Origin: a virus
Strand: one strand, 5' to 3'
Virus record (IMG/VR): IMGVR_UViG_3300028388_002189
Location: 17,259-81,258 of that record
Length of the DNA: 64,000 nucleotides
The translations under genes were made by a program, and so were the position numbers. Shown piece after piece: positions 3,933 to 60,068 of this stretch (position 1 is its first letter; every line of letters begins with the position of its first letter). The notes under the pieces are model-generated. The model was given only the letters and a program-made list of their open reading frames with translations, made no database searches and had not been told where the DNA came from.

Positions 3933-3945
3933 GTCTGTTCCTTTA

Positions 3946-3957
3946 AGTTGTTGAAAA
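3946..3957 (-). repeat. genome-wide motif TTTTCAACAACT, copy 1 (abuts the ParB-like RBS)
   Basis: AGTTGTTGAAAA on the + strand. Confidence 0.9.
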
Positions 3958-3964
3958 GTATTTT

Positions 3965-4384
3965 TTAGTGTGTCGTGTAGTTGTCTAATAGTTCTGCAAA
4001 TACGGAAGCGGGCACCATTACCCAATCCTTTTCTAAGTGGTTAGGTAAGCCCTCCAAAGTCAAAGCAACCCCCGCCCATTTAGAGTTGAGACTCGCTTGT
4101 CTCTTTAACTCTACTAGCACATCTGAAGTGATTGTAAAACGGTCTTTGTCAGTCAACTTAGCTTGCCATACAAAGAGTTCGTCTTGTAGATCTCCCTTAA
4201 AACTGATGTTAGGTAGAGCCCCGCTGTTTGGAGTTGTCTTACTGCGCAAGACCTCTTGTAAACGATCTTCATGCACAACTGACCTGCTCTTATTGCACAT
4301 AGGCTCTTTATCATCAAAAGTGTTAGGGCGAGGTCTTTTGCCTCCTAGACTGCTTTGTCGCATTAGGTGTCTCCATCCATCCAA
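3965..4384 (-). CDS. Holliday junction resolvase-like PD-(D/E)XK nuclease
   Basis: HE...TPNSGA...KGDL...QAK pattern of phage Hjc-like resolvases; next to RecA. Confidence 0.6.
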   Translation of the reverse strand: MDGWRHLMRQSSLGGKRPRPNTFDDKEPMCNKSRSVVHEDRLQEVLRSKTTPNSGALPNISFKGDLQDELFVWQAKLTDKDRFTITSDVLVELKRQASLNSKWAGVALTLEGLPNHLEKDWVMVPASVFAELLDNYTTH

Positions 4385-5478
4385 TCAACTTCTCTTCGCC
4401 AGATCTCATCCTTCATATCAAAGAAAGTGGGCTCATCGTTGGCAAGAGCTTCCGCAGTCTTGATCAGTCCTTGGTACTTCTCGCCATTAGGTAACTTGTA
4501 CCAAGCACCCGTCTTCTCAACGAGACCCCAATATTCACCAACCGCCACAATCTGTTCGGCGATATTAGACGCACCTGCAACATAGGGCATAGAGTCTCTA
4601 AAGAAGATACTGAAGAGACACGATCTGTTCGGTGGCGCTGTCTTGTTCTTCTGCATAGTAACTTCCATATCTTGACCAAACGGAGCGCTACCCGACTTGT
4701 CCTCGATAAACCCTTTACGTTTAACCTTGCAGATCACACTAGAGGCAAAGTCAATCCCTTTCCCACCAGGTGAAGTTTCGGGCGAACCGTAAATAACGCC
4801 GACTTTATGTCTAATCTGATTGATCAGCAATATGGTAGGTGGAACCACCTTTGTCATGCCCACAGCGTTCTGAGCGCTAACCCACTTACGCATCGCCTTG
4901 TTCATTAATCGAGCATGGACACCAACTTGCCACTTCTCTGAAGACTGCTCTATCTCAACACTCGGTGTAAGGTGAGCAACGGAGTCTACAACAAGTAGGT
5001 CGCACTCGCCCGAACGAATCACGCTGTCTGCGATATCAATGCCCTGTTCAGCGAACTCGGTACGAATGACATAAGTCTTGTCGTTCTTCATGCCTAGTCT
5101 TTCTGCCCAAGAGTTCTGATAAGAACCTTCTGCGTCAAACCAAACAACGCGCATAGACTCTGGATTGTCACAACACGCTACCTCTGCACCATCCTGTACA
5201 ATCTCATTCCAAAGTACAAGAGGCTGACCGCAGTTGCGACACGTTCTCTGAAAAGACGCACCTATACGGTGTGCAAGCGCTGACTTGCCAGAGGAATACT
5301 CACCTTTTAAGGTGATAATCGTACCAAGAGGTATACCGCCGCCTAGCGCAAGATCAAAACTCATGATCCCTGTCTCAATCCGCTTTCTGACGTTTAACTT
5401 GGCAGACTTTGACGCTTGAACAAAGCAATCATCGCCATAGCTCTTGTTGATCTTCTTGATCAGTGAATCAAGGCTCAT
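4363..5478 (-). CDS. recA: RecA/UvsX recombinase with a Cys-rich insertion
   Basis: ETGIMSFDLALGGGIP, Walker A GEYSSGKS, FDAEG, LVVDSVAHL, INQIR, ETSPGG, KNKTAPP, GAWY. Confidence 0.95.
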   Translation of the reverse strand: MSLDSLIKKINKSYGDDCFVQASKSAKLNVRKRIETGIMSFDLALGGGIPLGTIITLKGEYSSGKSALAHRIGASFQRTCRNCGQPLVLWNEIVQDGAEVACCDNPESMRVVWFDAEGSYQNSWAERLGMKNDKTYVIRTEFAEQGIDIADSVIRSGECDLLVVDSVAHLTPSVEIEQSSEKWQVGVHARLMNKAMRKWVSAQNAVGMTKVVPPTILLINQIRHKVGVIYGSPETSPGGKGIDFASSVICKVKRKGFIEDKSGSAPFGQDMEVTMQKNKTAPPNRSCLFSIFFRDSMPYVAGASNIAEQIVAVGEYWGLVEKTGAWYKLPNGEKYQGLIKTAEALANDEPTFFDMKDEIWRREVDWMDGDT

Positions 5479-5687
5479 TGTTTATTACCCTTCATGCCTT
5501 GACGTATCTCAGCCGCTTTAATCTCAAGTTGTCTGTAAACTTCTCCCCAAGCGCGTTCAAACTCTTTGGGAACATCCTTTACGTCACAGGGAAGTTCGAT
5601 GCCCGCTTCAATCCCTGCGCTTTCATAGTTACCAAGGTTAATCTTCAGAGAAGCGTATGCTTTAACTTTTGCTTTGTCATCACTCAT
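5475..5687 (-). CDS. hypothetical phage protein (KINLGNYES motif)
   Basis: small ORF; likely start ATG 5687 after AAGGA. Confidence 0.7.
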   Translation of the reverse strand: MSDDKAKVKAYASLKINLGNYESAGIEAGIELPCDVKDVPKEFERAWGEVYRQLEIKAAEIRQGMKGNKQ

Positions 5688-5691
5688 GTCT

Positions 5692-6264
5692 TTATCCTTC
5701 TTCTGTATATTCACTTGCGGGTACACCACCTACAAGGTTGCTGAACTTCTCTTCTACATACTGACAAAGTTCTTTGGTCACTCGGAACTTGTAGTTGTTT
5801 AGTGTCGCCTGTTTACGGAATCGTTTAAACGCCCTCACCAAGATGTCTACTTGATACTGAGTGTACACTCGCCATCCCTGTGGGTTACGGTAAAGTGCCC
5901 TTGGGATCTTTCTCTGGTAGATCAAGTGCTCCAAGCGCTTCTTGTCGAGCTTTAGCTTCATTGCTACAGCAGTTATCGTGTACATCTTGCAGACATGACC
6001 TTTGGTCTGATCCGCAGATAAAACTTTCATCATGCAGTTGTATTCCACTTCAACCTCTTCGTTACTCGGTAACTCTGGCGCACTTTGGTAACTGTCTTGT
6101 TCTTTCCTAAGACGTGCGGTGCGTCGTTGTCTGTTTACTCTGTTTCGGTATTCTTCATCATTCTGAAAACGCTTCTTACGGTGCGATAAGATACGTTCTT
6201 TATTTTTTAAGTAGTATTCGCGCTGATAGCCTTTTCTACTCTTGGTTTGTACGTCCTCAGACAT
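5692..6264 (-). CDS. DNA-binding protein with a MerR-like HTH
   Basis: basic N-terminal helix; YTITAVA...YRNPQGWRVYTQYQVDIL. Confidence 0.6.
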   Translation of the reverse strand: MSEDVQTKSRKGYQREYYLKNKERILSHRKKRFQNDEEYRNRVNRQRRTARLRKEQDSYQSAPELPSNEEVEVEYNCMMKVLSADQTKGHVCKMYTITAVAMKLKLDKKRLEHLIYQRKIPRALYRNPQGWRVYTQYQVDILVRAFKRFRKQATLNNYKFRVTKELCQYVEEKFSNLVGGVPASEYTEEG

Positions 6265-6644
6265 TATGCGTCTTCCTTTACTGTCAAAGTCTTGATGGTC
6301 TTAACGTCAGAGTATTCTGCGATCTCCATCGGATCGACTAACCCCTCTGCGATCAAGTCCTCAACCTTCTTTAGATCTACCTTTGAGGCTAAGAACTTAG
6401 TTGTGGGTATACCCTTGTGGAGTAATAAATGTTCGATCCCTTCAAGGTCATACTTGACCCTTTGAGATGATGACATCACAGCACTGTAGTGCCCATCTTT
6501 GAACTTGTTTGTGTCTTCTGCGGATAAGGCAAGATCGATCCTCGCCTTTAAGTCTTTTTTCTGTGACTCAAGAATCTTAATTTCTTGGTTCACCTTGTGA
6601 TAATCAATCACTAGTTCTTTGAGTGTCATAGAACCTCCTATCAT
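6264..6644 (-). CDS. hypothetical coiled-coil phage protein
   Basis: ORF with GGAGG RBS before ATG 6629, downstream of a sigma70-like promoter. Confidence 0.7.
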   Translation of the reverse strand: MIGGSMTLKELVIDYHKVNQEIKILESQKKDLKARIDLALSAEDTNKFKDGHYSAVMSSSQRVKYDLEGIEHLLLHKGIPTTKFLASKVDLKKVEDLIAEGLVDPMEIAEYSDVKTIKTLTVKEDA

Positions 6645-6649
6645 TGAGG

Positions 6650-6678
6650 AAGATAGGGCACTCAGTAACGTATGTCAA
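6650..6678 (-). promoter_or_regulatory. sigma70-like promoter for the recombination genes
   Basis: TTGACA (6678-6673) - 17 nt - TATCTT (6655-6650). Confidence 0.6.
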
Positions 6679-7943
6679 ATAAAATAATAACCTAAGTTAG
6701 TGTAGGTCTTCTTCCTTGCATACCAGTAAGCATTCATTATGGGTATGTTGTGGTCTACAAAGTCTACGACAACAGGGTCTTTTTTATCGGGAGCATCCCT
6801 CAGTATACGACCTACACTTTGTGTGATTGATGTTTTCGGTGTAGCTAATATCAGTGTGTCTAGGGCGGGGATGTCAAGTCCCTCTTGCGCCATCGCATAA
6901 GTGCCACAGATGACGTCAGCTTCCGCTGCCCTCTCTCGCTGCGCTTGTTTCATGCCTCCAATGTAGACTGCACAAGTGAAGTCATCACTAACTTTACTTT
7001 TCAACAACTCGCACATCTCTTTTGTGTGCGCGACTCGCTCTGAGAGTATCAGAACTCGTCGTCCCTTCTTTAAAGCTCGATACGCAAAGTCAACGATGCG
7101 ATCAGTTCGACCCTCTACTTTAGAGATCATAGTGACCAACTTTGAAGTGTTCACTTCGCCGTCGTACCTTAAGTATGAGTTCTGTGGGAAAGAGGTATCA
7201 GTGTCTATACGCCAGATAGCAGGCTGACGCTTGTGACCTTCCATCCAATAAACGATAGGACCTATGTGTAAATAAAACACATGATGCAGTCCGTCCTTAC
7301 GCTCTGGAGTTGCGGTTAGTCCTATACGATATGCAGCACCAAAGTTGCTTATCGCATCTTGCCACATAGGAGCAGCGTATCTATGTGTCTCGTCGGCTAC
7401 AATCGTACCAAACATCTCATAGATCTCTTCGGGATACTCACGCCTTGGATTGACAATAGACTGCACCATACCAATGACAATATCTTCATCACCTGTAGGT
7501 ATGGTGTCTCTTTGCCAAAGACCAACCTTAGCGTTAGGAAGAAAAGTAGAAACACGCTCTACCCACTGATCGACCAAGAAAGACTTGTGAACTAAGACAA
7601 GCGCCTTCCGACCAATGCGACGAATCATCTCCAACCCCATGACAGTCTTACCTTTGCCACAGGGCGCAAACAGAATAGCGCCTTTACCTGGTCGGTCTAA
7701 AGCATTAATCACGGCTTCCACCGCAGGCACTTGCTCATCTCTTAAGTTAATAGGTTCCATATCTCTTATGGAGTCACCAAGCCAAAGTTGGCTGTCACCA
7801 TAACTAAAGTCTTGGTAGGCTCTAGGCACCAAGAGTCCGTCTTCGACTTCTCGAAAGACTTCACAACGAAAGTCACCTTCACCAAACGTCAAAGATTCCT
7901 TGTCTAGTTCTGACCAAGAGGTCTTCTTTGCCCAACCTCTCAT
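6675..7943 (-). CDS. superfamily 2 helicase (UvsW/XPB-like)
   Basis: LRDEQ, APCGKGKT, ADETH, GLTATPER, EGLDIP, QSVGRILR. Confidence 0.92.
   Translation of the reverse strand: MRGWAKKTSWSELDKESLTFGEGDFRCEVFREVEDGLLVPRAYQDFSYGDSQLWLGDSIRDMEPINLRDEQVPAVEAVINALDRPGKGAILFAPCGKGKTVMGLEMIRRIGRKALVLVHKSFLVDQWVERVSTFLPNAKVGLWQRDTIPTGDEDIVIGMVQSIVNPRREYPEEIYEMFGTIVADETHRYAAPMWQDAISNFGAAYRIGLTATPERKDGLHHVFYLHIGPIVYWMEGHKRQPAIWRIDTDTSFPQNSYLRYDGEVNTSKLVTMISKVEGRTDRIVDFAYRALKKGRRVLILSERVAHTKEMCELLKSKVSDDFTCAVYIGGMKQAQRERAAEADVICGTYAMAQEGLDIPALDTLILATPKTSITQSVGRILRDAPDKKDPVVVDFVDHNIPIMNAYWYARKKTYTNLGYYFI
6998..7009 (+). repeat. genome-wide motif, copy 2 (inside the helicase, ELLKS register)
   Basis: ACTTTTCAACAACT. 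Confidence 0.9.
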
Positions 7944-9766
7944 TTTGCTTCTCCCCAAGAATCGCCAATACATGGCTCTGCGATAAGAGGTACATCGAGT
8001 TGTACGCAGTTCTCCATCTCATGCTGAAGAGTCGCGCTCACACGCTCTGCTAGATGTTCTTTGACCTCTACAACAACTTCGTCGTGTACTTGCCCGATCA
8101 CTCGGAAGTCAGCGCTTGTAAGACCTTCTGCTCTCAGCCTTCGATAAAAGTTCCTCATACCGATCTTAATCAGATCTGCCGCGCTACCTTGGACTTGGGT
8201 GTTGATTGCTTTGCGCTCGTCACCATTCTTTAGACCGAACTTAGCGCTGTTGATATTAGGCAAAGGACGATGGCGACCTGTGATTGTCCAAGTGAACCCC
8301 TTTCGCCTACATTTAGCGACGAGATTATCTTGGAACTTAGCAACACCGCTGTAGTTTTGGAAGTAACGATCAATGTAGTCTTGAGCCTCAGACTCTGTTT
8401 TACTTATTGCCTTTGCAAGAGTCTTAGCACCCATCTTGTAGATCAACCCAAAGTTGATCGCTTTGGCGTCAAAACGAGCACAGTTACAAGCGTCAGCAGT
8501 CATTTGGTGGATGTCGCCATTCTCTCGATAGATCTTAGACATAATAGGATCGCTAGACAGGTGAGCGGTAACCCTTAGCTCAATCTGAGAATAGTCAGCT
8601 ACGATTAACTTATAGCCTTTCTCAGCAATGAAAGACTTACGAATCAAGTCGCCTTCTTCAGTTCTCGATGAGGGTATGTTTTGCAAGTTTGGGTTAGACG
8701 AAGAGAAGCGCCCTGTACCTGTGCCCCATTGATTGAATGAGCCATGAACGCGCCCTTGAGAGTCTGCCGCATCGACAAGTTTCTTACAGTACGTTGTATA
8801 CAGTTTACTGACCTTGCGATAACGCAATACGTCTTTAGCCACTTGGCGACCAATTTCTGTAGTCCCAGAAGCGTCTCCAATAGACCAATCTTCAAGAGCC
8901 TCTTTATCTGTGCTATAGCAACCGTTTTTCCCCTTAGTGCCCCGCACGCCCCATATCTTACCTACGAGGTTCTCTGAGAGCCATTGAGTAGAACTGATAA
9001 GCGCTCGGTCTCCGAACATCTTTCGGAACTTCGACTCTAGTTGCTCTGTCTCTTCCTTCAAGGCTATGCCCGCAGTATATAGCTTTTCAGTGTCTACCTT
9101 GAACCCGAAGTGCTCCATCTCCTCAACGATTCTCATCATAGGCATCTCTAAGTCATGAAGTACCTTTGACAACTGAGGACTTAACTGTGGATACAGCCTG
9201 TGAGCGAGTTCTAGTAGAAACACAACGTCATCGATGGCGTATTTACCCATAGGACCTACAGGGGCATAAGCGTTCTTTCCATACATCTTAAACTGATTGA
9301 ATGACCCCATCTCTTTACCTAAGACTTTAGGTACTAGGTTCTTTAACCCATGCCCACCTAGTCTTTCGGGTTCAAGCAACCAACTGACAGCAATGGTGTC
9401 CAACACCTCACACTTAAGATTCTCAATATCGAACCCCTCGTTACGAAGTACCTTTAGATCAAACTTAGCGTTATGTATCCAAACGCGATTACCTTCAACG
9501 AACATCGCCTCGATGAGTCTGAAGGCAACGTCTTTGTCTACGTTAGACGGTTCGACAGCGAACAGGTCATCCCCACGCTCATGACGTAAGGGGACATACC
9601 AACCAATATATTGACCTTCATGCTGTACTGCGAATGAGAACCCGATACATATACGGTCATGCGAAAGACCATCGGTCTCTGTGTCAAAAGCAAACTCTTG
9701 ATGAGATTGTATAAAAGACAAGACTTCTCTTACTTGCTCATCGCTTGTAATGATTGAACTTTGCAC
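7940..9766 (-). CDS. polA: family A DNA polymerase (3'-5' exonuclease + polymerase, no 5'-3' exonuclease)
   Basis: FDTET, HNAKFD, YAIDD, TGRFSSSNPNLQNIP, ADYSQIELR, AKAINFGLIY, VHDE. Confidence 0.97.
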   Translation of the reverse strand: MQSSIITSDEQVREVLSFIQSHQEFAFDTETDGLSHDRICIGFSFAVQHEGQYIGWYVPLRHERGDDLFAVEPSNVDKDVAFRLIEAMFVEGNRVWIHNAKFDLKVLRNEGFDIENLKCEVLDTIAVSWLLEPERLGGHGLKNLVPKVLGKEMGSFNQFKMYGKNAYAPVGPMGKYAIDDVVFLLELAHRLYPQLSPQLSKVLHDLEMPMMRIVEEMEHFGFKVDTEKLYTAGIALKEETEQLESKFRKMFGDRALISSTQWLSENLVGKIWGVRGTKGKNGCYSTDKEALEDWSIGDASGTTEIGRQVAKDVLRYRKVSKLYTTYCKKLVDAADSQGRVHGSFNQWGTGTGRFSSSNPNLQNIPSSRTEEGDLIRKSFIAEKGYKLIVADYSQIELRVTAHLSSDPIMSKIYRENGDIHQMTADACNCARFDAKAINFGLIYKMGAKTLAKAISKTESEAQDYIDRYFQNYSGVAKFQDNLVAKCRRKGFTWTITGRHRPLPNINSAKFGLKNGDERKAINTQVQGSAADLIKIGMRNFYRRLRAEGLTSADFRVIGQVHDEVVVEVKEHLAERVSATLQHEMENCVQLDVPLIAEPCIGDSWGEAK

Positions 9767-9788
9767 TTATTTATCCTTGTAAAAGTAA

Positions 9789-9819
9789 ATGCCCCAAAGG
9801 GCTAAGATAGGCGGGGCAT
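9789..9819 (-). terminator. hairpin/terminator downstream of the SSB gene
   Basis: ATGCCCC...GGGGCAT stem followed by TTACTTTT on the minus strand. Confidence 0.45.
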
Positions 9820-9880
9820 CTGTCTTAAGGCACACCCATGCCCCCCTGCGGTGCGGAGAAACCCATGAACTAGGATAGCC

Positions 9881-10666
9881 TTAGAACGGGATTGGATCGC
9901 TTCCGTTGTTACCACTGGTACTACCAAACACTCGGTTCTCTTGTTGAGGTGGCGTGTTGTTGATCGGACTCTGCCAGTTGTTAGCAGGTTCACTTGTCTG
10001 CGCTCCCCAACCATTATGATTAGTAGCACCAAACGAGTTATTGTCGTTACTCTTACCTTGCTTGAAAGGATCATTAGCGTCTGGGTTGAAGATGGCTTCG
10101 ATCTCAGACTTTGACTTTGGCTTCAAGATCTCAAGGTAGTTAAATGGAACATGAACATTTGGATCAAGAGGGAAGTTCTCAGAGTGCTTCTCAAGCATAG
10201 AACCACTGCCTGGAGACTTGTCACCCATGCGACTGACCAAGAAAGTTTGACCGCTTAAGTCCATGCCGCGCTCCATAAATCGCTCAATCTGCTTCCAAAC
10301 CTGTGAAGACCGCTTGACGACATAGAGGCAGAGTTCGTCTCTGTGTGCGACGCCATTTCGATCCGTCCACTCAGCATGGTCGATCGCAGTAAGCACAGCA
10401 ACCTTTGAAGCACGATACCCCATGTCTTTGAGTACATCGTCACTTGGATCAATCGGCTGTGTAAACCAGTTTCTCCAACTGCCGTTAAGTTGGAGTTGAT
10501 ACTCATTGTACTTGAATGGTGTTTGTACCTTGAGTCCATCGAGTTCGATTGTTGGAGTGTCAATGAACGTGATAAGACGCTCGGTGTCATTTGGCATCCA
10601 AAAGCGCTTTGTGTATTTCTTCTGTGTGTTTTGGGCAAAGCCCGCATCGTTATTAAACCAACTCAT
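9881..10666 (-). CDS. single-stranded DNA-binding protein (gp32-like)
   Basis: lies between primase and PolA; RFWMP, low-complexity N/Q/G tail ending DPIPF. Confidence 0.7.
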   Translation of the reverse strand: MSWFNNDAGFAQNTQKKYTKRFWMPNDTERLITFIDTPTIELDGLKVQTPFKYNEYQLQLNGSWRNWFTQPIDPSDDVLKDMGYRASKVAVLTAIDHAEWTDRNGVAHRDELCLYVVKRSSQVWKQIERFMERGMDLSGQTFLVSRMGDKSPGSGSMLEKHSENFPLDPNVHVPFNYLEILKPKSKSEIEAIFNPDANDPFKQGKSNDNNSFGATNHNGWGAQTSEPANNWQSPINNTPPQQENRVFGSTSGNNGSDPIPF

Positions 10667-10733
10667 CTGTGATCCTTTCGTCAACTATGTTGGGAGTAGT
10701 ATTAATACTACAAATGTTAGTGTCATACAATAG

Positions 10734-10745
10734 TTTTCAACAACT
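10734..10745 (+). repeat. genome-wide motif, copy 3 (intergenic, primase-SSB)
   Basis: AGTTTTCAACAACT. Confidence 0.9.
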
Positions 10746-11711
10746 TTATAAAAGAGTGGCAGATTGTATTACAGACACAATCTGCTGAGCAGAGCACTCA
10801 CCGAAGTCCTTCTTTCCCACAGAACCTATATGAGCGACCTTAGCCATCAAACGGGTAGACAGTAAGTCCTTTGCTTTAGCAAGTCCTCTTTGTCCCGCTT
10901 CGTCAGCATCAAGAGCAATCACGACTTGATTGGAACATCGGACTAACAGATTGGCTTGTTGCTCAGTTAAAGTAGCGCCCAAGATGCTCACCACGTTATA
11001 GTCTTCGGAAAGACCTGCTTGATGTATCGCTTGATCTGCTAATAGTGCATCTAAACTACCCTCAACGATGATGGTCGTCTTAGACTTCTTAATGAGATGA
11101 GCGCCAAGTAGTTGAGTGCCTTTCTTCATCTCCCAGTAGTTCATGTACTTGGGTGTTTCATTAGCGTATGAGCGACCTACTGCGCCCCACAACTTGCCAG
11201 AGAAGTCTCTCACAGGGATAACTGCTCTCTTCTGTGATACATCAACTCCTACGCCCCAACGCTTACCTGTCTCTAAAGATATACCTCGCCTTTGAAGATA
11301 CGGAGCAAACTTGCGAGCGAACGGTTCAAACAAACACTCATCGATCGACTTTGGCTTTGGACTATCGTTTCGATATAGACCCATCGCCTTTAGGTTCTGT
11401 ATACCAAGCGCGAGATACTGTTTCTCAAGTTCTAGTACAGCGTCTAAAGCACCACCCCACCTTAAGTCATGACTTGCTAAACGACTAAACAGGTAAGATA
11501 ACTGACCGCTCTTGAATCGACAAGTGAAGCAGTTAACGAGAACTGCACCTTCAGTTACCTTGATACCCATAGAAGGATGACTGTCATAGTTGTTCCTGTG
11601 CAAAGGAGTATAGGGCGCAAGAGGACACGGGATCGACAGGTTTTGGGCACCCTGCCGTACTCGGAAGTTACACTTCTGCAATATGTCTAAAACAGCTTGT
11701 TGCTTGTCCAT
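10746..11711 (-). CDS. DNA primase (Zn finger + Toprim)
   Basis: CPLA..H...PSM...NCFTC, GR, IIVEGSLD, LDADEAG, KDFGE. Confidence 0.92.
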   Translation of the reverse strand: MDKQQAVLDILQKCNFRVRQGAQNLSIPCPLAPYTPLHRNNYDSHPSMGIKVTEGAVLVNCFTCRFKSGQLSYLFSRLASHDLRWGGALDAVLELEKQYLALGIQNLKAMGLYRNDSPKPKSIDECLFEPFARKFAPYLQRRGISLETGKRWGVGVDVSQKRAVIPVRDFSGKLWGAVGRSYANETPKYMNYWEMKKGTQLLGAHLIKKSKTTIIVEGSLDALLADQAIHQAGLSEDYNVVSILGATLTEQQANLLVRCSNQVVIALDADEAGQRGLAKAKDLLSTRLMAKVAHIGSVGKKDFGECSAQQIVSVIQSATLL

Positions 11712-12937
11712 CAGAAACCTACAGGATTCAATCCGCTGTCTTGTACCTCAGAGAACTTCATGTTTGCCATGTCCCAATCAAGTTCAATCTCTGGGCGTGA
11801 ACCTTCACGCTGCTTCAACACTCTTAAGGTCATACGCTTATCAAGTCTCTGATCTTCGTCTTGAAAGAGACCAAGGATCACATCAGCATCCTTAGCAATG
11901 TCACCATAAGCAATATTTGAAGCGTCACCTTTTGCGTTATCAGCGCTTCGGTTAAACTGCACAGTTGCAATGATCGGAATCATCACTCTCTTAGCGAGTC
12001 GCTTCATGTCTCGACTAATGTTACTGATCTTCAGCCAGTTATCTCTAGCTCGCTGATCATCATCCATTAGGTACATACCATCGATAAAGATGATGTCGGG
12101 CTTATGGCGTTCGATCTTCGCCGCGACTTGAGATACGCCACCTGTCTCTTCACCTACGATCATGAGCTTGCCGTTAGGCAATCCATTCTTGACCTTTTGT
12201 CGCCACTCGGTCTCGATGAACGAGTTCAAGTTACCGCTTCGTAAGTCTTGGTAGGGCAGATTATACTCTAGCGCGTCAAAACGTCTCGCGACCTGTTTAG
12301 AAGGCATCTCTTTGGTGAAGTAAAGAACACGCAAACCGTCTTGGTAGTTCTTGTGCGCCATGATGTTTGTTAACCAAGTCTTACCAACACCCTGTCGAGC
12401 AACGACAAGTATAAACTCACCGTCATGCCAACCCTGTGTGGCATTGTCGAGTGTCTGAAAAGGTGTTCGATACCCATCAATACCACCCTTCTTTTGTATA
12501 TCGAGGTAGTCATTGTAGCGATCTTCAGCAGAAGCACCCCAATCAAGATCCGCCTCGCTTGCGGTAGCGTCTTCGATTTTCCTAAGCGCATCTCTTAAGT
12601 CATCAACCGCAGACTCGACTTCACGTTTATTTAAGTTGTCGTAAGCGCTCTGAATACCAACTAAGGTCAAGTTGAATGCGTGTTTACGCTTAAGTTGCTC
12701 TACATAGTAAGAGAGCGGTTCTGGTGCTGGGAAGTCCCAAGAGTATTCTTGGAACTGTGCGGTGATCGCCTCGTCAGTAGGACCTGTCCCATGTGCCTTC
12801 ATGTGCTTGAGAGCGTACTCCCAAATGTCTCTTGCAACGCCACTGAACATTTCGGGTATGACCGCTTGATCGATCGCCTCTGCGTATAAGGCAGTGTTTT
12901 CAGCGCACTTGTCTATAATCTTCTTTTCAATATCCAT
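11711..12937 (-). CDS. dnaB: DnaB-like replicative helicase
   Basis: ARQGVGKT, FTKEM, FIDGMYLM, QFNR, DADVILGL, KQREG. Confidence 0.95.
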   Translation of the reverse strand: MDIEKKIIDKCAENTALYAEAIDQAVIPEMFSGVARDIWEYALKHMKAHGTGPTDEAITAQFQEYSWDFPAPEPLSYYVEQLKRKHAFNLTLVGIQSAYDNLNKREVESAVDDLRDALRKIEDATASEADLDWGASAEDRYNDYLDIQKKGGIDGYRTPFQTLDNATQGWHDGEFILVVARQGVGKTWLTNIMAHKNYQDGLRVLYFTKEMPSKQVARRFDALEYNLPYQDLRSGNLNSFIETEWRQKVKNGLPNGKLMIVGEETGGVSQVAAKIERHKPDIIFIDGMYLMDDDQRARDNWLKISNISRDMKRLAKRVMIPIIATVQFNRSADNAKGDASNIAYGDIAKDADVILGLFQDEDQRLDKRMTLRVLKQREGSRPEIELDWDMANMKFSEVQDSGLNPVGF

Positions 12938-12940
12938 GTC

Positions 12941-13291
12941 TTAGCAATATCTCTTAAGGCTTGATGTGTATAGGACGGTTTCAGATGTAACGAGAGCGGG
13001 ATCGTTCACCACCATCTCAACCGCACGATGATTGCGCCGTAGCGCGTCACGACACTCAGCAAAAGTGTCGAAAGTTAGACTGTCATAGTCTGACAGTAGT
13101 TTGTTAGGTTCTTGTCCAATGTAGACAATGACAGGTCTTAGTAGGTAGGAGACACCCCATAACCAACTTTCATTCTGAAGGGCGTACTTCTTTGGACCCA
13201 CCAAGAAAACTCTCCCCTCGTACTTAAGGACACAATCGCTGTGTATCCAAAGCGTAGGGGATAGAGTGTTTGCGATGCTACCTCTCATCAT
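12941..13291 (-). CDS. hypothetical protein
   Basis: 116 aa, coupled within the replication operon. Confidence 0.65.
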   Translation of the reverse strand: MMRGSIANTLSPTLWIHSDCVLKYEGRVFLVGPKKYALQNESWLWGVSYLLRPVIVYIGQEPNKLLSDYDSLTFDTFAECRDALRRNHRAVEMVVNDPALVTSETVLYTSSLKRYC

Positions 13292-13962
13292 TTGAGCATC
13301 TCCGCAGTCATAGACTGACCAAGGACTTTGCGACGGTCTTGTCCCTTCATCTCACAAGCAACCATACATTCCATAGCCAAAGAAGCCGCAGATTGCTTAT
13401 AGCGCTCTTGAAAAGCCTTTGGAGATAGATTGGTAGTCACAATCGTTGGAAGACACTCTCTTGATCGTTTACGAAGCATATTCTCAAAGCAAAGCTCTGC
13501 AAAGCCACTGCCCTTGCCAGAGTATTCTTTACCGAGATCCTCTAAGAGAAGGAAGTCTACCGACTCAACACGCTGTACAACGGAGTTGTCTCTATCGAAT
13601 CGCTGCCCATCAATGTAAGCAACCTTCAGCACGTCAGATAAGACACAGTATGTTGAGTAACCGCGCTTCTGTATCTCTTTCAGCAGAGCACAGGAAGCAT
13701 GAGTCTTACCCACACCGTTTCCACCATATAGAAAGATACCCCAACCTTGGTTGTAGTTCGCTGTTAAGTCTTTGACGTAGTTCCGAAAGATCTGCTTTGC
13801 ACTGCACTCTTCAACCTGTGACATATCAGCGCTCCAAAAGCGTCTGCCTATGTTCATCCGTGTGAGAGTCGTTTCACTTAGACTTCTTGGCTTTGGGTTT
13901 GTTGTTCTGCTCATCTTCAATAACCTGTATGTTTTGTCTGAGGATACGCCACTTGCGAGCAT
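13288..13962 (-). CDS. DnaC/IstB-like AAA+ helicase loader
   Basis: GGNGVGKT, LLLEDLGKE, PTIVTTNL, GQDRR; probable start ATG 13914. Confidence 0.9.
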   Translation of the reverse strand: MLASGVSSDKTYRLLKMSRTTNPKPRSLSETTLTRMNIGRRFWSADMSQVEECSAKQIFRNYVKDLTANYNQGWGIFLYGGNGVGKTHASCALLKEIQKRGYSTYCVLSDVLKVAYIDGQRFDRDNSVVQRVESVDFLLLEDLGKEYSGKGSGFAELCFENMLRKRSRECLPTIVTTNLSPKAFQERYKQSAASLAMECMVACEMKGQDRRKVLGQSMTAEMLK

Positions 13963-14167
13963 ATTCTCTTGCTTGTCTAGGGATTGATATTGTGGGGTGT
14001 GTTTCTTTTCGGACTAAAGGACGTTTGCCCATCTTCTCGGGACCATATAGTTCTAAGTGTGAACGTGTCTCTTTAAGAATAATCTTCATAGCGTAAAGGC
14101 GACTTAGGTGATTCTTAGGGTCATCTTTAACCACAACGCCAATCTTCTGCTTTTCTAGGTAACTCAT
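13874..14167 (-). CDS. hypothetical basic protein
   Basis: 97 aa, abuts the initiator stop codon. Confidence 0.55.
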   Translation of the reverse strand: MSYLEKQKIGVVVKDDPKNHLSRLYAMKIILKETRSHLELYGPEKMGKRPLVRKETHPTISIPRQAREYARKWRILRQNIQVIEDEQNNKPKAKKSK

Positions 14168-15025
14168 CTACCAACCAATCTCGCCTCCATCTGGGCGACT
14201 GTCTTTTTCGTTGTTGAACTGAGAACCCCACGTCGGTTGACCTTGGAGCTCTCCGTCTATCATAAGGGGGAATAAACTGTTTCGGAACCCCCAAAAGATA
14301 GGCATTGAAGGGTATCCTTTGATATTGAAACGAGGTGCGATCGTTTCCCAATCTTTAACACAGCGCTTGATAACATCAGTCACCACCTCTGCGCTATAGA
14401 TACTGATCAAGTCTTTAGCGTGTTTTAAGTCTCGACCAAAGAACCTTGGCGGAGGAGACTTCCACTTCTCTCTCCACTCAATCGCCATCACGAACTCAAG
14501 ATCTTTAGCGTTGTACTGCTCTGGAGTCTTCTCGTTGAATGCTTGTAGCCTACGCCAATGTTGAGGCTTTGTTTGAACAGGAGTACGTTTCTTAGACTTG
14601 TCACGCGCCATATCGAGGGAAGTGTCGATGAGGTTCTTAAGAGGATCGATCGCTTTATTTGGCTCATCGTGTAGAGGCTTTGTGATCTCCTCTTCAGCAA
14701 CAGGTACACCTGCAAGATCTTTCAATGCACCAAGTAGCGGAGCATAGTCATAGGTCTTCTCGTTAGTCTCTGTTCGTACAGGCGTTAGATAACCCTTATG
14801 GCTAAGTGATCTTAGATAAGCTCTGACGGTCTGACCCGACTTACCAGTCATCTTCGCGAAGTATTCAGCGCTTGGGAAGTCGCGATTCCCAAACCAAGAA
14901 TGGTCTAGTAGGTGAAGCACAAGCATTGCCTCTTCCATCGAGATATTGAGTTTACGATAGTTGGTGAGAAACACACGACTGATAGGCATAAAGCCTTGCT
15001 CTGAAAGGTTAGTGAACTCAATCAT
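14168..15025 (-). CDS. replication initiator (DnaD N-terminal-like winged HTH)
   Basis: YRKLNISMEEAMLVLHL..FPSAEYFAKMTG..VRAYLRSL..KGYL..YDYAPL; upstream of a DnaC-like gene. Confidence 0.8.
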   Translation of the reverse strand: MIEFTNLSEQGFMPISRVFLTNYRKLNISMEEAMLVLHLLDHSWFGNRDFPSAEYFAKMTGKSGQTVRAYLRSLSHKGYLTPVRTETNEKTYDYAPLLGALKDLAGVPVAEEEITKPLHDEPNKAIDPLKNLIDTSLDMARDKSKKRTPVQTKPQHWRRLQAFNEKTPEQYNAKDLEFVMAIEWREKWKSPPPRFFGRDLKHAKDLISIYSAEVVTDVIKRCVKDWETIAPRFNIKGYPSMPIFWGFRNSLFPLMIDGELQGQPTWGSQFNNEKDSRPDGGEIGW

Positions 15026-15272
15026 CAGACTTCACCTCACGATTGTCTTTGAGGTAGTCTTTGAGATCAATCGTAGCTTTAGGCTCTTCACCTTGTACCA
15101 TGCGAGCCATCTGGCGAAGGATTGCTCTGTCTTGATCTGTCTCTGCTCCATACAGATAAACCGCTTGGAGGATCATCTCAGCCAACTGTTGCCCTGTGGG
15201 GTGCTTCAAGTCGATGAGTAGTTTGTTCTTTTTGCTGTCTAGGCGAACCATGTTTTCTCCTTTGTGTACCAT
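15018..15272 (-). CDS. hypothetical protein
   Basis: small ORF, AGGAG RBS before MVRLD. Confidence 0.65.
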   Translation of the reverse strand: MVHKGENMVRLDSKKNKLLIDLKHPTGQQLAEMILQAVYLYGAETDQDRAILRQMARMVQGEEPKATIDLKDYLKDNREVKSDD

Positions 15273-15284
15273 AGACTGTACTCA

Positions 15285-15336
15285 GAGATAATCGTTTGCC
15301 TCCAAAACGTCAATAGATTTTATCGATGTTTTTTAT
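15285..15336 (-). promoter_or_regulatory. candidate promoter of the replication operon with an adjacent TATCGATGTTTTTTAT operator
   Basis: TTGACG (15313-15308) - 17 nt - TATCTC; 16-nt identity of 15321-15336 with 223-238. Confidence 0.5.
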
Positions 15337-15589
15337 ACACACCCATCGTGATCATACTACCCTTGACCTCTGTGGACTGTACCCAACTACCTATTTTGTA
15401 AGGTAAAGCACCTCCACCTACAAGGTGAACGACCGCTAAAGAAAGATCCATTTTTATTTTTAGATCTGAAGATCTACTACAGGTAAGTAGGTACGCATTG
15501 AAGTCTTTCTCAAACTGATCTTCTTTGTTGACCGCTGAGTATTCAATCGACCTAGCTATCAAAAGTTGGTCGTTAACGTTCTCTGTCAT
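15320..15589 (-). CDS. hypothetical protein
   Basis: 89 aa, immediately downstream of the TATA-rich element. Confidence 0.55.
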   Translation of the reverse strand: MTENVNDQLLIARSIEYSAVNKEDQFEKDFNAYLLTCSRSSDLKIKMDLSLAVVHLVGGGALPYKIGSWVQSTEVKGSMITMGVYKKHR

Positions 15590-15600
15590 CTTGGTAGCTC

Positions 15601-15650
15601 CGCTCTTATATATATAGGTTATCTTATAGTATATATAATATATAAGAGCG
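15601..15650 (-). promoter_or_regulatory. TATA-rich repeated element (copy 2), bounded by the inverted repeat CGCTCTTATATAT
   Basis: CGCTCTTATATATATAGG...TATATATAATATATAAGAGCG. Confidence 0.55.
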
Positions 15651-15664
15651 AGTACCTCTAAAAC

Positions 15665-16021: not shown

Positions 16022-16023
16022 AA

Positions 16024-16353: not shown

Positions 16354-16372
16354 TGTCTATAAAAGTTTGTCT

Positions 16373-17983: not shown

Positions 17984-18003
17984 TTTAAGTCTCCATACAA
18001 GAA

Positions 18004-18035: not shown

Positions 18036-18095
18036 AACTAGTCAATCATAAACAGTGTTTGTTAGATATGACTGCGCGTCACCTACAATACGTTA

Positions 18096-19433: not shown

Positions 19434-19475
19434 TTTAGACTCCTTTATAGTTCAACGTTAAGTAAAAAAGTTTTG

Positions 19476-47648: not shown

Positions 47649-48436
47649 GTCAAGTCTACACTTGCAGACTCTGTGTAAGACACCAAGTCGTTAGAGTTGT
47701 ATATTGCTAAACGATAATAATACACTTGACCAAAACTTGGCTGATCAAAGTAAATATTGTCGTGATTATCGCTAGAAGCAAAGACCGAAGAAGTTGTTGA
47801 AAAGTCGGGAGACGTACTACGTTGCAAGGTGTAGTAGTTGAAGTATTCGTCATAGACAATACCCCAAGTAACTTGAACCTTTTGACCTATAACCGATACC
47901 GCAAAACCCTCTGGAGGTGCGATAGGTTTGTCATAGACATATGGCATACGGCGACCTGTTCTCAGCGACATACGCGACATGGTGTATTGCTGAATCTCTG
48001 CGCCCTCTTCACCACGATCTTGAAGACGTGCAAGAGCAGACAAGTACTCTTCTTCCAACTTTGCCGCTAGACGCAACCAATACTTTGGTCCGTCTAAAGG
48101 CATTTGCTGTCGCTGTACCGTCAGTTGAGGCACAGTGACAATCTGATCGGGGACATCGGGGAAGTCTTCAACATCTGAAGACGCCCCTTCTGCACCACGA
48201 ACGTAACACATATTAACTGTAGCGCGAACTTCTGCCAAGTATTCGTACTTCACAGGAAGTGTCGCGACAGTATAGTTGCTGTCTAAGTCGAGGTTAATCC
48301 GACCAAGACCACTTTGGATAGAGTCTATATAGTACTCATCCAAATAAAGAGGACGACCATCCTCGCGAGAGGTATGACTGACATTATCATGTACTCGCGC
48401 TCTAATGCGCCTTATCAGTGAGTTAACATCAGCCAT
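47645..48436 (-). CDS. head-tail adaptor with a C-terminal FN3-like domain
   Basis: LIRRIRARVHD N-terminus; VTW..YTLQRS..YFD..YYYRL FN3 signature. Confidence 0.65.
   Translation of the reverse strand: MADVNSLIRRIRARVHDNVSHTSREDGRPLYLDEYYIDSIQSGLGRINLDLDSNYTVATLPVKYEYLAEVRATVNMCYVRGAEGASSDVEDFPDVPDQIVTVPQLTVQRQQMPLDGPKYWLRLAAKLEEEYLSALARLQDRGEEGAEIQQYTMSRMSLRTGRRMPYVYDKPIAPPEGFAVSVIGQKVQVTWGIVYDEYFNYYTLQRSTSPDFSTTSSVFASSDNHDNIYFDQPSFGQVYYYRLAIYNSNDLVSYTESASVDLT
47792..47803 (-). repeat. genome-wide motif, copy 9 (FSTT register)
   Basis: AGTTGTTGAAAAGT. Confidence 0.9.
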
Positions 48437-50810: not shown

Positions 50811-50839
50811 ATTATGGAACATATTACTATGCTCGTCAA
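50811..50839 (-). promoter_or_regulatory. sigma70-like promoter upstream of the scaffold/capsid genes
   Basis: TTGACG (50839-50834) - 17 nt - CATAAT (50816-50811). Confidence 0.6.
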
Positions 50840-50845: not shown

Positions 50846-51817
50846 TTATATCACAAGCGGTTCAATACTGCACATACAGTTAGGGTGGGGCAAGTCGGGC
50901 AAACTGCTAGAAGTATACAAACCATTCAAAGACCCAGAGAAACCACTTGGTATACTACTACTAACGTCTGATCCTGTAGAAACAGACAAAACTTCGCAAA
51001 TTTCTGTACCGCCATAACTCTTGTGCGCCGCGCTCAATCTCCAATAAAAGAAAGAAACACCAATCGCTCGCATCGCTTCGACTGTTGCTCTCTGCATTGC
51101 TCTGTTCTGCTCAGTACGGTTGATCCTACTCATGGTCTTGGCGACACACGCCCTATTAGATCCTTTGGGGTCTACTAAAGACTTCTTTAGCTTAGAACGG
51201 TCTTTGATCCGATCAAGCATTCCCATTTCCATGCGCTTCTTTAACTCTGCCTCCATTCGACCACCAACTGAAGCAAGCCTTTGTGCAGTGTTCATACCAC
51301 TCTTACCTGTGGGTTGATTATAGATCCTCCGCGCTTCTGTACGCGCAAGTTGTCTTATGGTCGCCATAGGTAATAAGTCTTTATTTGGGAGAGATCGTCT
51401 AACGCCTATAAGATAGGTCTTCACAGAACCTTCCAAGTTATCAAGTATCTGATCTCTAGCCTCATTCAGCGTCTCTCGCACCACCTGCTCTAGCTGCCTA
51501 CCTAACTCAGACTTTTCAACAACTCTAAGTTCCCCTGTAGTTCGGTTTCTGCGTCGATCAAAACGCATATATGCTTGCTCTGCTTTGCTGATCCCTTTGA
51601 GCATTAGAGTACGAACTTTACCCTCTTGGGTAGGTAGTCGATTCAAGATACGACGCTTAGCGTCTGCTATCTCAAAGTTACGCTCACCCTTTTTCACACT
51701 TGCAGGTCTTGCCTCTAACTCAAGCGTAGCACCTGTGACGGTCTTAACCTTATGAGTATTAGAAAGTAGACCACTGCCTTTAGAGGTGGCTTGAGGTGTA
51801 AACTTCTTTCTAGCCAT
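50846..51817 (-). CDS. head morphogenesis protein (Mu gpF/SPP1 gp7-like)
   Basis: RINRTEQNRA, WRLSAAH, ICE, PHPNCMC. Confidence 0.8.
   Translation of the reverse strand: MARKKFTPQATSKGSGLLSNTHKVKTVTGATLELEARPASVKKGERNFEIADAKRRILNRLPTQEGKVRTLMLKGISKAEQAYMRFDRRRNRTTGELRVVEKSELGRQLEQVVRETLNEARDQILDNLEGSVKTYLIGVRRSLPNKDLLPMATIRQLARTEARRIYNQPTGKSGMNTAQRLASVGGRMEAELKKRMEMGMLDRIKDRSKLKKSLVDPKGSNRACVAKTMSRINRTEQNRAMQRATVEAMRAIGVSFFYWRLSAAHKSYGGTEICEVLSVSTGSDVSSSIPSGFSGSLNGLYTSSSLPDLPHPNCMCSIEPLVI
51513..51524 (+). repeat. genome-wide motif, copy 10 (VVEK register)
   Basis: ACTTTTCAACAACT. Confidence 0.9.
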
Positions 51818-55827: not shown

Positions 55828-55840
55828 GATGTTTCCCTTG

Positions 55841-55890
55841 CACTTATATATAGAGTGATTCTTATATATATATACTATATAAGATCGAGA
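55841..55890 (-). promoter_or_regulatory. TATA-rich repeated element (copy 3) at the head of the packaging/structural operon
   Basis: CACTTATATATAGAGTGATTCTTATATATATATACTATATAAGA. Confidence 0.55.
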
Positions 55891-55910
55891 CTAAAGAAAC
55901 GAGAGGGCAT

Positions 55911-56234
55911 ATGACAACTAAAGAAGCATTTCTCAGTGTAATGCATGACCACCCTATCTCAGACTTTTCAACAACTTTTTACCCAAACGGGGAACAAGAC
56001 TTGAGCAAAGAAACAGCAGATAACGATAAAGTAAACCACCCAAAACACTACAGACCAGGAACGTATGAGGCAATAAACGTCATAAACGCATGGGAACTAG
56101 GCTTTGCCCTAGGTAATGCACTCAAGTACATTTGTAGAGCAGGACGTAAAGATCCAAACACTCAAGTACAAGATCTTGAGAAAGCAATCTTCTACCTTAA
56201 GCATGAGATCAAAACCATCAAAGATCAAAAGTAG
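55911..56234 (+). CDS. DUF3310 / T7 gp1.7-like nucleotide kinase
   Basis: DKVNHPKHY, EAINVI, GFALGNALKYICRAGRK, DLEKAIFYL. Confidence 0.85.
   Translation: MTTKEAFLSVMHDHPISDFSTTFYPNGEQDLSKETADNDKVNHPKHYRPGTYEAINVINAWELGFALGNALKYICRAGRKDPNTQVQDLEKAIFYLKHEIKTIKDQK
55965..55976 (+). repeat. genome-wide motif, copy 11
   Basis: ACTTTTCAACAACT. Confidence 0.9.
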
Positions 56235-58953: not shown

Positions 58954-58958
58954 AGTAA

Positions 58959-59031
58959 TATCAACCACTTACAAAAAAAGAATATTTTTCAAAGAAAGTT
59001 GTTGACGTGCGAAAGGTAGTAATGGTACCTC
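58959..59031 (+). promoter_or_regulatory. candidate early promoter with an upstream IHF-consensus site
   Basis: TATCAACCACTTA (58959-58971) matches WATCAANNNNTTR; TTGACG at 59002, TGnTACCTC at 59023-59031. Confidence 0.5.
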
Positions 59032-59078
59032 TTATACATCGCTAAGGCGAATCACTCACAACTCTAAGGAGAACACTC

Positions 59079-59393
59079 ATGGCAACGCTCTTCAATCACT
59101 TCCAGTCAGCACTTCACTCTTTCACAAAAGAAGTTCACGACCGTGTGATCAACAACGCCAAGTGCGTCATCGAAGACTCTGGCGCGTCAAAGAACGCTTT
59201 CTACATCAAAGCATACCGCGCTGACATCGAAGTCAAAGTCGAATGCTTCATCTTCCTCGTCTCTGAGAGACGTGTCAGCGTCTCCTTTACCGTCAACTGC
59301 CCCTTCACAGGTCAACACAAACACGAATGGACCTGTCTACCTGTTGACCTAGATGCTGAAAAACTCGCCGCTTCCATCAACTGCTACCTCTAA
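59079..59393 (+). CDS. hypothetical protein
   Basis: strong TAAGGAG RBS. Confidence 0.75.
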   Translation: MATLFNHFQSALHSFTKEVHDRVINNAKCVIEDSGASKNAFYIKAYRADIEVKVECFIFLVSERRVSVSFTVNCPFTGQHKHEWTCLPVDLDAEKLAASINCYL

Positions 59394-59643
59394 TACCTCT
59401 AAGGACTTTATTGTGAACCCGCCCTTCTACGTCGCCATCACCCTCAAAGACGATCCCGTCTTCATGACATTGCCCTTCATCGACGCTGACACGCTCACAC
59501 AAGCACAAGACAAAGCACTCTATTGGTTCAACGTTTACAACCGAAAACCGTCACACATCACCGCCCAAGACTTTAAGTTCAATCAAGAAGTCTTCACAGA
59601 CGATAAAAGATACTGTTTCGTTATCCAACAATACCCCTTCTAA
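59353..59643 (+). CDS. hypothetical protein
   Basis: ORF in the operon; TAAGGA before a likely GTG at 59413. Confidence 0.6.
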   Translation: MLKNSPLPSTATSNTSKDFIVNPPFYVAITLKDDPVFMTLPFIDADTLTQAQDKALYWFNVYNRKPSHITAQDFKFNQEVFTDDKRYCFVIQQYPF

Positions 59644-59654
59644 GGAATATACCT

Positions 59655-60050
59655 ATGTACTTCTCCATCAAAACACACGTCCAAGTCTCTTACGAAACCC
59701 TCGTAGACATCATGTCCGTCGCCTTCTTACAAGGTGCCTGTTCGTCATGGGCAACCATCTCGCCCTCTTCTACATACGCCGAAGCGTCAAACATCGACTG
59801 GTCAAACACAAACAAAAACGCCGTCGAAGACGCACTCGTTAACGTCTATCACCCCGAATGGGAAGTCGCCATCAATGACTTTCAAGGACGGTTCATCAAA
59901 GACGTTAACGTCACTGAAATCGTCTCCGCAATCCAAACCATCGCCCGCAAATATCCCGCTCACTTCCACATGATCAAGAACAATAACATCACCCCAGATA
60001 TCGCTGAAATGGTTCTACAATACACCATGTTCGGTGCCGTAAGATACTAA
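59655..60050 (+). CDS. hypothetical phage protein
   Basis: TAAGGA RBS; ends VLQYTMFGAVRY. Confidence 0.75.
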   Translation: MYFSIKTHVQVSYETLVDIMSVAFLQGACSSWATISPSSTYAEASNIDWSNTNKNAVEDALVNVYHPEWEVAINDFQGRFIKDVNVTEIVSAIQTIARKYPAHFHMIKNNNITPDIAEMVLQYTMFGAVRY

Positions 60051-60056
60051 CCACGC

Positions 60057-60068
60057 TTTTCAACAACT
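60057..60068 (+). repeat. genome-wide motif, copy 12 (between convergent genes)
   Basis: GCTTTTCAACAACT. Confidence 0.9.

Follow-up and report, generated by a model that had tools for sequence, protein, structure and literature searches.

A regularly spaced genome-wide 12-nucleotide motif in a family of uncultured marine myoviruses, with an orphan ParB/Noc-type CTPase as candidate reader

The 81,258-bp IMG/VR record IMGVR_UViG_3300028388_002189 (G000) comes from a contractile-tailed phage (myovirus). In this study, we analysed bases 17259-81258 of G000, a stretch of 64,000 nucleotides (nt) referred to as the window, and positions are those of the window unless another contig is named. The structural genes of G000 encode sheath, baseplate J, tape measure, a collagen-like fibre, portal, capsid, and terminase. 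Its replication genes encode a DnaD-like protein, a DnaC-like loader, DnaB, primase, a family A polymerase, a helicase, and RecA, and further genes encode SpoVS, RusA, MazG, a class II ribonucleotide reductase with an intein, ThyX, PhoH, and a ParB-like protein. Nearly all of these genes are carried by the minus strand. Public marine plankton metagenome runs contain part of the window as assembled contigs. Megablast of 20 kb of the window against 50,697 phage records gave no match, and the closest isolate is Bacillus phage BCD7, whose terminase is 40% identical. Here we describe an array of exact copies of the 12-mer TTTTCAACAACT that runs through G000, together with the orphan gene of a ParB/Noc-family CTPase (304 amino acids (aa), 3018-3932, minus strand) that is the candidate reader of this array.

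The window contained 12 exact copies of TTTTCAACAACT, all at the positions and on the strands listed in the initial annotation, compared to 0 in 100 dinucleotide-preserving shuffles. The whole record contained 20 exact copies, 14 on the plus strand and 6 on the minus strand, and the motif was unrivalled among the 12-mers of G000 except by collagen-repeat words of the fibre gene. As proposed earlier, A[CG] directly preceded 11 of the 12 window copies, the exception being the copy at 60057, which is preceded by GC. The trinucleotide CTA stood 7-9 nt upstream in 14 of the 20 copies of G000, where about 1 was predicted from the background of 4.6%. The spacer between the two elements is A+T-rich in unconstrained intergenic copies, for example in ACACTATAAAATAG-TTTTCAACAACT-TTT. 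When one mismatch was allowed, only a single extra copy was found in the window (TTTTCAACACCT, 37512-37523, minus strand). This copy had also been reported before; it lies in an 822-aa gene (FSTP) without an upstream CTA, and its membership of the array is doubtful.

The copies were dispersed evenly. Gaps between the 12 window copies ranged from 3,052 to 9,341 bp, matching the initial estimate of about 3-9 kb, with a coefficient of variation of 0.35 compared to 0.93 under random placement (p = 0.00025). The 20 copies of G000 were likewise more even than random (0.49, p = 0.0004). Enrichment over codon-preserving shuffles had been named beforehand as a check, and with crude gene calls we counted 10 intragenic copies, whereas 300 shuffles gave 0.43 on average and never more than 3. 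By crude gene calls, 10 of the 20 copies lay outside genes, in 16% of the G000 DNA (binomial p = 0.0004), and several of these intergenic gaps are hardly more than the motif site and a ribosome-binding site. Relative to the genes, about 9 copies were sense, about 8 antisense, and 3 ambiguous. In six copies a co-directional start codon followed after 9-22 nt, two others stood just before a start codon but were oriented against it, and two lay between convergent genes; the remainder were intragenic.

We then compared G000 with its relatives, which are uncultured phages found by sheath-based searches. These relatives keep the array with variants of their own (TTTCCAAMAACT, TTTTCAAWAACT, and GACTTTTCAACAA), at positions that are partly conserved and partly replaced. 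G002 (73 kb, sheath 66% identical) carries 16 exact copies of TTTTCAACAACT. The variant TTTCCAA[CAT]AACT is found in the related contigs G001, G006, L144, L145, and L150, and TTTTCAA[AT]AACT, a near-palindrome when its flanks are included, in the complete G003 (84.9 kb). The site of G005 (60.9 kb) reads (T)GAC-TTTTCAACAA without a CTA element. A 21-kb locus, L168, has the same core as G005, TTTTCAACA, and the form in both is (T)GAC-TTTTCAACA(A). Six copies of TTCACCAA were found in L172, a 9-kb high-GC contig.

Sites shared with G002 were conserved beyond their surroundings. By synteny with G002, 14 of the 20 G000 sites aligned to a motif-bearing position (13 exact and 1 with one mismatch, in alignments of 218-612 nt). 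At 9 sites shared with G002 the 12-mer was 0.99 identical and the flanks 0.70. Together with the codon-shuffle excess, this bears out the earlier view that selection acts at the DNA level. G003 had its own variant at 5 of 10 aligned G000 positions, and the rest were degenerate. Among the 12 sites of G005, 5 were within 20 nt of a G000 site, 6 were at least 570 nt from any, and 1 gave no hit; the sites of G005 are partly independent of those of G000, and they too are evenly spaced (p = 0.003). Both G000 and G005 have a site in the helicase gene, at different places and in opposite orientation, and independent gains of sites differ in orientation. A 263-aa structural gene reads FSTT in G000 and F-P-T-T in G001, L144, L145, and L150, fitting their TTTCCA variant. 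Therefore, the protein changed together with the word.

We conclude that the array is genuine and old and that selection on it is strong. Its conservation and turnover carry the signature of selection on both the density and the sequence of the sites, and of a co-evolving reader, and the concerted variation across relatives points to a reader, either phage- or host-encoded. The best explanation is that the 12-mer is the core of a double-stranded DNA recognition site specific to this phage family. Selection holds about one such site per 4 kb genome-wide, in short gaps if possible and otherwise inside genes, with a placement that ignores the direction of transcription. The array would offer high-affinity sites at which a putative phage-encoded DNA-binding protein binds or loads, so as to coat, organise, or silence the whole genome. 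We consider it somewhat probable that the array is an array of protein-binding sites, whichever protein reads it.

Three side observations concern the relatives. L172 (55% GC) is binned with a Chitinophagales metagenome-assembled genome, and TTCACCAA is one letter off the TTCAACAA core. It was the only real relative from a sheath-alignment search of bacterial genomes, the other matches being generic contractile-sheath proteins, and its binning is a weak hint at the host. G006 (L163 and L164; 32 kb) also carries another 13-nt word, ACAAGCGTTCAGT, which with overlapping words occurs 9 times and whose 9-10-nt core occurs 13 times. A search of viral contigs for the exact 14-mer ACTTTTCAACAACT was uninformative: among the matches listed (80 of at least 117 stretches), all were single and in unrelated contigs.

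The window copies outside genes lie in varied settings. On the minus strand, the copy at 3946-3957 stands 13 nt before the ATG of the ParB-like gene, with the stop codon of the upstream open reading frame (ORF) inside its CTA element. The copy at 34156-34167 (minus) occupies a 24-nt intergenic gap, with the ATG of a 104-aa gene 9 nt downstream. The copy at 43497-43508 (minus) lies between the tail-tube gene and a 275-aa gene whose ATG is 20 nt on, and a copy at this position is also present in G002, G001, G003, G005, L144, L145, L146, and L150. On the plus strand, the copy at 10734-10745 is found antisense in a 61-nt gap after the primase gene, directly after a terminator-like hairpin on the gene strand. 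This hairpin (10759-10785, minus; 11 pairs and a T-rich tail) closes the primase gene and was the best of its kind in window 1-20000. The copy at 55965-55976 (plus) lies just upstream of the terminase gene block, at a switch in gene direction, and that at 60057-60068 (plus) between convergent genes, 6 nt past a plus-strand gene.

The intragenic window copies fall into the coding registers given in the initial annotation (ELLK[ST], VVE[KN], LFNNF, and FSTT). Four plus-strand copies are antisense: 6998-7009 within the ResIII/DEAD helicase gene (ELLKS); 16040-16051 in the final codons of a 109-aa gene (KVVEK), with the next start codon 18 nt on; 22793-22804 in an 86-aa ORF (IVVEN), at a position kept in G002, G003, and G005; and 51513-51524 in a 323-aa gene beside the portal gene (RVVEK), common to G002 only. 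Two minus-strand copies are sense, at 28684-28695 in a 188-aa baseplate-region gene (LFNNF) and at 47792-47803 in the 263-aa gene (FSTT). The partial copy previously placed at 59002 is GTTGTTGAC, in reverse orientation at 58998-59006 (plus). It overlaps a -35-like hexamer, TTGACG, and TAGTAA follows 9 nt downstream.

The product of the gene behind the copy at 3946 belongs to the ParB family and has a CTPase fold at its N-terminus as well as a helix-turn-helix (HTH). The protein contains GFRR and ENVSR motifs and a ParB-type HTH, and it matched the Pfam families ParB_N (8.5e-10) and HTH_ParB (1.4e-13). Its best PDB matches were Noc (7ng0, E = 9e-16) and Spo0J. ParB relatives in viral contigs were retrieved by an alignment query, a single-protein query having given none, and the resulting orthologue set is one without the ParB of the TTTCCAAC lineage. 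L169, also returned by the alignment search, was rejected as an unrelated high-GC phage. GFRR and ENVSR were invariant among 4 orthologues. All 12 orthologues with upstream DNA had the motif 13-19 nt before the ATG, that is, a site next to the parB gene. The recognition helix was nearly invariant, reading SKTL.. where the upstream site has CAAC (8 orthologues) and SKTI.. where it has CAAA (3 orthologues). No N-terminal membrane helix of the Noc kind was visible by eye in the orthologue alignment. The same operon contains a gene for a RecB/Cas4-like nuclease and a SpoVS-family gene (1459-1728, minus; Pfam 4e-22), the product of which is 36% identical to that of BCD7.

We tentatively propose this partner-less ParB/Noc-type CTPase as the reader, an assignment we hold to be possible rather than probable. 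Its dimers would form CTP-dependent clamps that load at every site and slide for a few kb, and the even spacing of about 4 kb would then let the clamps cover the genome. The copy before the ParB-like gene would provide feedback.

Site arrays of this kind are known from bacterial chromosomes, where MatP and SlmA provide further genome-wide examples besides Noc. The initial annotation had likened the motif to parS, Noc-binding sites (NBS), matS, and SlmA-binding sites (SBS). For ParB-family arrays this likeness held in the even genome-wide layout and in the ParB/Noc-family gene behind one copy; for all four it failed in the site itself, which is asymmetric. Noc tethers DNA to the membrane via an N-terminal helix. 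It is described as a ParB-like CTPase without ParA that nucleates on many sites scattered round the B. subtilis chromosome. The phage protein has Noc as its best solved sequence relative and shares with it the absence of ParA, whereas NBS are palindromic, and the function in the phage would have to differ.

The nearest working model is KorB with its OB sites. KorB works with the ParA-type IncC in partition. KorB is a ParB-family CTPase that loads at OB and slides (PMC11790492). The RK2 plasmid of about 60 kb has 12 OB sites, which lie from a few bp to more than 1 kb from promoters and are conserved in R751 both in sequence and in position (PMC13768133). G000 resembles this system in having about 20 sites on 81 kb, conserved positions, and a ParB-family gene beside one site. 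Unlike the palindromic OB, the site here is asymmetric in most lineages, no ParA was found, and the replicon is a tailed phage in which nothing pointed to lysogeny; membership of the KorB/OB type thus fails on palindromy and ParA. The BisD clamps are described as travelling tens of kb and meeting a partner at dispersed promoter sites (PMC12409273). A survey of the ParB fold lists many orphan ParB-like proteins in phages, with unassigned functions (PMC12704722).

A role in partition, which had also been put forward for the motif, is unlikely because neither ParA (AAA_31) nor an integrase was found in G000 or in the complete G003. The AAA_31 search gave no ParA in G000, G002, G005, or G003, while the controls gave matches in all 14 genomes; no search with the CbiA-type ParA model was made. 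The integrase sought in G000 was of the tyrosine type.

Several observations weigh against a ParB-type reader. Known ParB, Noc, and KorB sites are palindromes. The core TTTC(A/C) resembles the half-sites of parS and NBS, which speaks for ParB, but only 4-5 of 7 dyad pairs are complementary in the G000 site A[CG]TTTTCAACAACT, which lacks the 13-16-bp palindrome of ParB-family sites. The G003-lineage variant AGTTTTCAAAAACT is the only one to reach 6 of 7. Because its spacing of 7-9 nt is flexible, the CTA element fits a two-domain monomer better than a symmetric dimer. The co-variation of helix and motif may be one evolutionary event, and the changes involved (L/I, I/V, and T/S) are conservative. 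Directly upstream of start codons the site favours one orientation, at about 6-9 independent positions versus 3, a hint at a direction-dependent role. L254 has both T and C at motif position 4. Moreover, a perfect 22-bp palindrome, TAAAATCTATCGATAGATTTTA, is present at window 254-275, beside an (AT)n tract at 141-156. The palindrome core recurs in G002 (30 bp) and G003 (20 bp), while words of the palindrome are repeated 3-5 times in L254 and L255. This conserved 20-22-bp palindrome could be the true ParB site or a replication origin.

The comparison with BCD7 adds to these points. Its most over-represented k-mer was T[TA]TTACCAAC(TAAAA), with 19 copies, and in a by-eye alignment the BCD7 word ACTTTTACCAACT matched the marine word at 12 of 13 aligned positions with one gap. 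No ParB homologue was detectable in BCD7. The word lay on the coding strand in 17 of the 19 copies and in a 12-kb early region in 12, and in 11 of the 19 it stood between the -35 and -10 hexamers of promoters with sigma-A geometry. Two promoters have it in a register shifted by 3 nt, and it is often accompanied by a second, degenerate copy about 22 nt upstream. It looks like an operator set into early promoters. BCD7 also contains perfect palindromes of the host parS type, TGTTTCACGTGAAACA (L170 2117-2132; BCD7 2117) and GTTTCACGTGAAAC (L171 41636-41649; BCD7 91636), and a near-copy at about 89.7 kb. All three stand 14-16 nt before an early promoter with the word inside it, and palindrome and word are separate elements. 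BCD7 is like G000 in its gene order and in that almost all of its genes share one strand, and unlike it in that its word is co-oriented with the genes and embedded in promoters and in that it has no ParB gene. BCD7 further encodes an HU-family protein, unlike G000, in which none was found. A literature search found no paper on the marine word or on the BCD7 repeats, which is not proof of absence.

These observations are compatible with another phage DNA-binding protein as the reader, a two-module monomer that would read CTA together with the 12-mer in an arrangement derived from a BCD7-like early-promoter operator. We regard this reading as possible but doubtful. It agrees with an asymmetric, bipartite site with flexible 7-9-nt spacing and with the operator-like position of the related word in the promoters of BCD7, which has no ParB gene. 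The stoperators of Cluster A mycobacteriophages are a known case, and a 2019 mBio paper on immunity in this cluster reportedly describes co-evolution of site and repressor across it. These phages have more than 20 exact asymmetric 13-mers in promoters and short intergenic gaps, bound by L5-type repressors that are two-domain monomers; stoperators keep one orientation to transcription, and their function is lost when they are reversed (PMC9283540). G000 shares with them asymmetric exact sites across the genome. However, Cluster A phages are temperate and the orientation of their stoperators is fixed, whereas in G000 orientation is mixed, many sites are intragenic, and neither an integrase, a ParA, a repressor, nor anything else that would indicate lysogeny was found. 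No candidate gene for such a monomer emerged: in Pfam scans of about 66 proteins of the window and L143, the only HTH hits besides ParB and the DnaD-like protein were weak ones in one 476-aa protein. If such a monomer exists, its role, equally doubtful, could be that of a roadblock or global regulator like the stoperator system, or of a partner that stops ParB clamps in the way that KorA and TrbA lock KorB clamps at operators (PMC11790492; PMC13584720).

By analogy with KorA and TrbA acting on KorB, both kinds of protein might work together in a two-part system, in which ParB-family clamps would be loaded or captured at the word by a second, word-binding factor. The marine phages would use their own clamps and BCD7 would use host Spo0J or Noc, recruited via the parS palindromes beside the word. 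We consider this combination unlikely. If true, it would mean that a phage without signs of lysogeny coats or silences its whole genome, or shields it against host nucleoid proteins and defence systems, and it would be a new job for ParB clamps.

The density and exactness of the sites also recall the targets of phage site-specific nickases, which produce the localised single-strand interruptions of T5, phiKMV-like phages, and Pseudomonas phage tf. Phage tf has 14 sites of a 9-nt consensus in 46 kb. Relatives of tf have their sites at similar positions with a one-base change in the consensus, for which co-evolution of nickase and site was proposed; the phiKMV consensus is likewise bipartite (PMC3517423). 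T5, phiKMV, and tf thus share with G000 exact words every few kb, conserved positions, and one-base shifts of consensus, and the density, exactness, synteny, and concerted variation of our sites agree with the tf pattern. However, the nick sites of T5, tf, and phiKMV-like phages are described as lying on a single strand (PMC3517423), whereas the strand ratio here is 14:6 in G000 and 7:5 among the 12 exact-core sites of G005. No nickase candidate was identified, and most BCD7 copies are parts of promoters.

Contig ends bear on this reading as well. The left end of G000 (L143 1-21) consists of repeated sequence rich in G and T and has a motif copy 9 nt away; this may be chance or a hint about physical ends. 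This coincidence was not repeated at 7 other contig ends, where no motif was found within 120-200 nt (both ends of G002, G001, and G004, and the right end of G000). The last G005 site observed was about 900 nt from the contig end, the final 895 bases not being covered. The direct terminal repeat annotated in G003 (77 bp) was taken as the assembly overlap of a circular assembly and set aside as uninformative on physical ends. We consider nick sites a decidedly unlikely explanation of the array.

The initial annotation held that the copies do not look like ordinary promoters, and our analysis agrees, since none of the 20 G000 copies had sigma-70 geometry and their orientation is mixed. The motif could still be a phage-specific promoter that gives both sense and antisense transcripts, with either the host RNA polymerase in a modified form or some unrecognised phage factor as its reader. 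By our own reading, 22 copies in G000, G002, G001, G003, and G005 have a co-directional start codon 9-22 nt further on and directly precede its Shine-Dalgarno sequence, and the related BCD7 word is part of sigma-A promoters. Read in reverse, the site has the form TTGAAA-N8-10-TAGTGT, and TAGTGT and TAGAGT are -10 hexamers of a conserved sigma-70-like early promoter. This reverse promoter was not adopted, as half of its copies would fire antisense and the G005 lineage has the CTA/TAG element in 0 of 12 sites. A -35-like hexamer with TAnnnT at 16-18 nt was found in 0 of 20 copies in G000, 0 of 16 in G002, 0 of 11 in G003, and 0 of 12 in G005, and the forward orientation was rejected as a BCD7-type promoter for the same want of geometry in all four. 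Copies are not co-oriented with downstream genes (about 9 sense and 8 antisense), and two lie between convergent genes. Sigma-70 region 2 (Sigma70_r2) was not found in G000; a search for the T7-type RNA_pol family was uninformative, as its control genomes gave no signal.

Canonical promoters are found elsewhere in G000. Six of 13 matches to sigma-70-like TTGACN-N16-18-[TC]AnnnT lay in the 16% of uncalled DNA, and all six were judged to face the neighbouring gene. Three intergenic promoters of the form TTGACN-17-[TC]AnnnT run with the genes at 50811-50839, 18017-18045, and 6650-6678 (all minus), one of them ahead of the capsid genes. General scans of window 1-20000 showed no enrichment, with 24 sigma-70 promoters versus 28.9 in shuffles and 14 terminators versus 14.9. 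We rank promoters low because the copies have no usable geometry, promoters exist elsewhere, and independent gains differ in orientation; a promoter function of the array is improbable.

Host factors such as DnaA or IHF, or a polar signal for recombination, nuclease, or priming, for example a Chi-like word for the RecB-family nuclease and helicase, were also weighed. DnaA had been named initially as an alternative reader, since TTTTCAACA matches the consensus TTWTNCACA quoted there at 8 of 9 positions. This match is confined to one lineage and is not kept in relatives: by eye, the G003 and G001 variants TTTTCAAAA and TTTCCAACA have two mismatches each (7 of 9), which makes DnaA a weak candidate. 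TTTCAA-N4-TT resembles the familiar IHF core, but the IHF-like core was rejected since only 10 of 20 copies have the T that must follow the 12-mer. The density of the sites equals that of E. coli Chi, and the phage encodes RecA, helicases, and a RecB/Cas4-like nuclease shared with BCD7, yet the 12-mer is far longer than known Chi words. By hand calculation, the orientations in G000 form 6 runs versus about 9.4 expected, as a polar signal might, but no orientation blocks were found in G005. Known primases use trinucleotide sites, which argues against priming. Taken as a group, these explanations appear most improbable.

Other features lie near the array. A+T-rich near-palindromic elements of the form CTCTTATATA...TATAAGAG are present at 15590-15664, before the replication block, and at 55828-55910, upstream of the terminase block. 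An element of the same type is found at the start of G002, and these elements may be regulatory regions. The intein of the class II ribonucleotide reductase gene (L143 13016-16081, minus strand, outside the window) contains a LAGLIDADG domain.

Site arrays such as those of RK2 KorB, Noc, and the temperate mycobacteriophages organise, silence, or position DNA. An even array together with a ParA-less ParB clamp, in a tailed phage with no sign of lysogeny, would point to something undescribed. To the known arrays this case adds an asymmetric bipartite site, its co-variation across a family of uncultured marine phages, and a related word in a cultured phage, BCD7 of Bacillus cereus, beside host-type parS, which offers a bench system. 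During infection, a phage of this kind would mark or coat its own chromosome, perhaps to compact it, to time expression, or to protect it from host defences.

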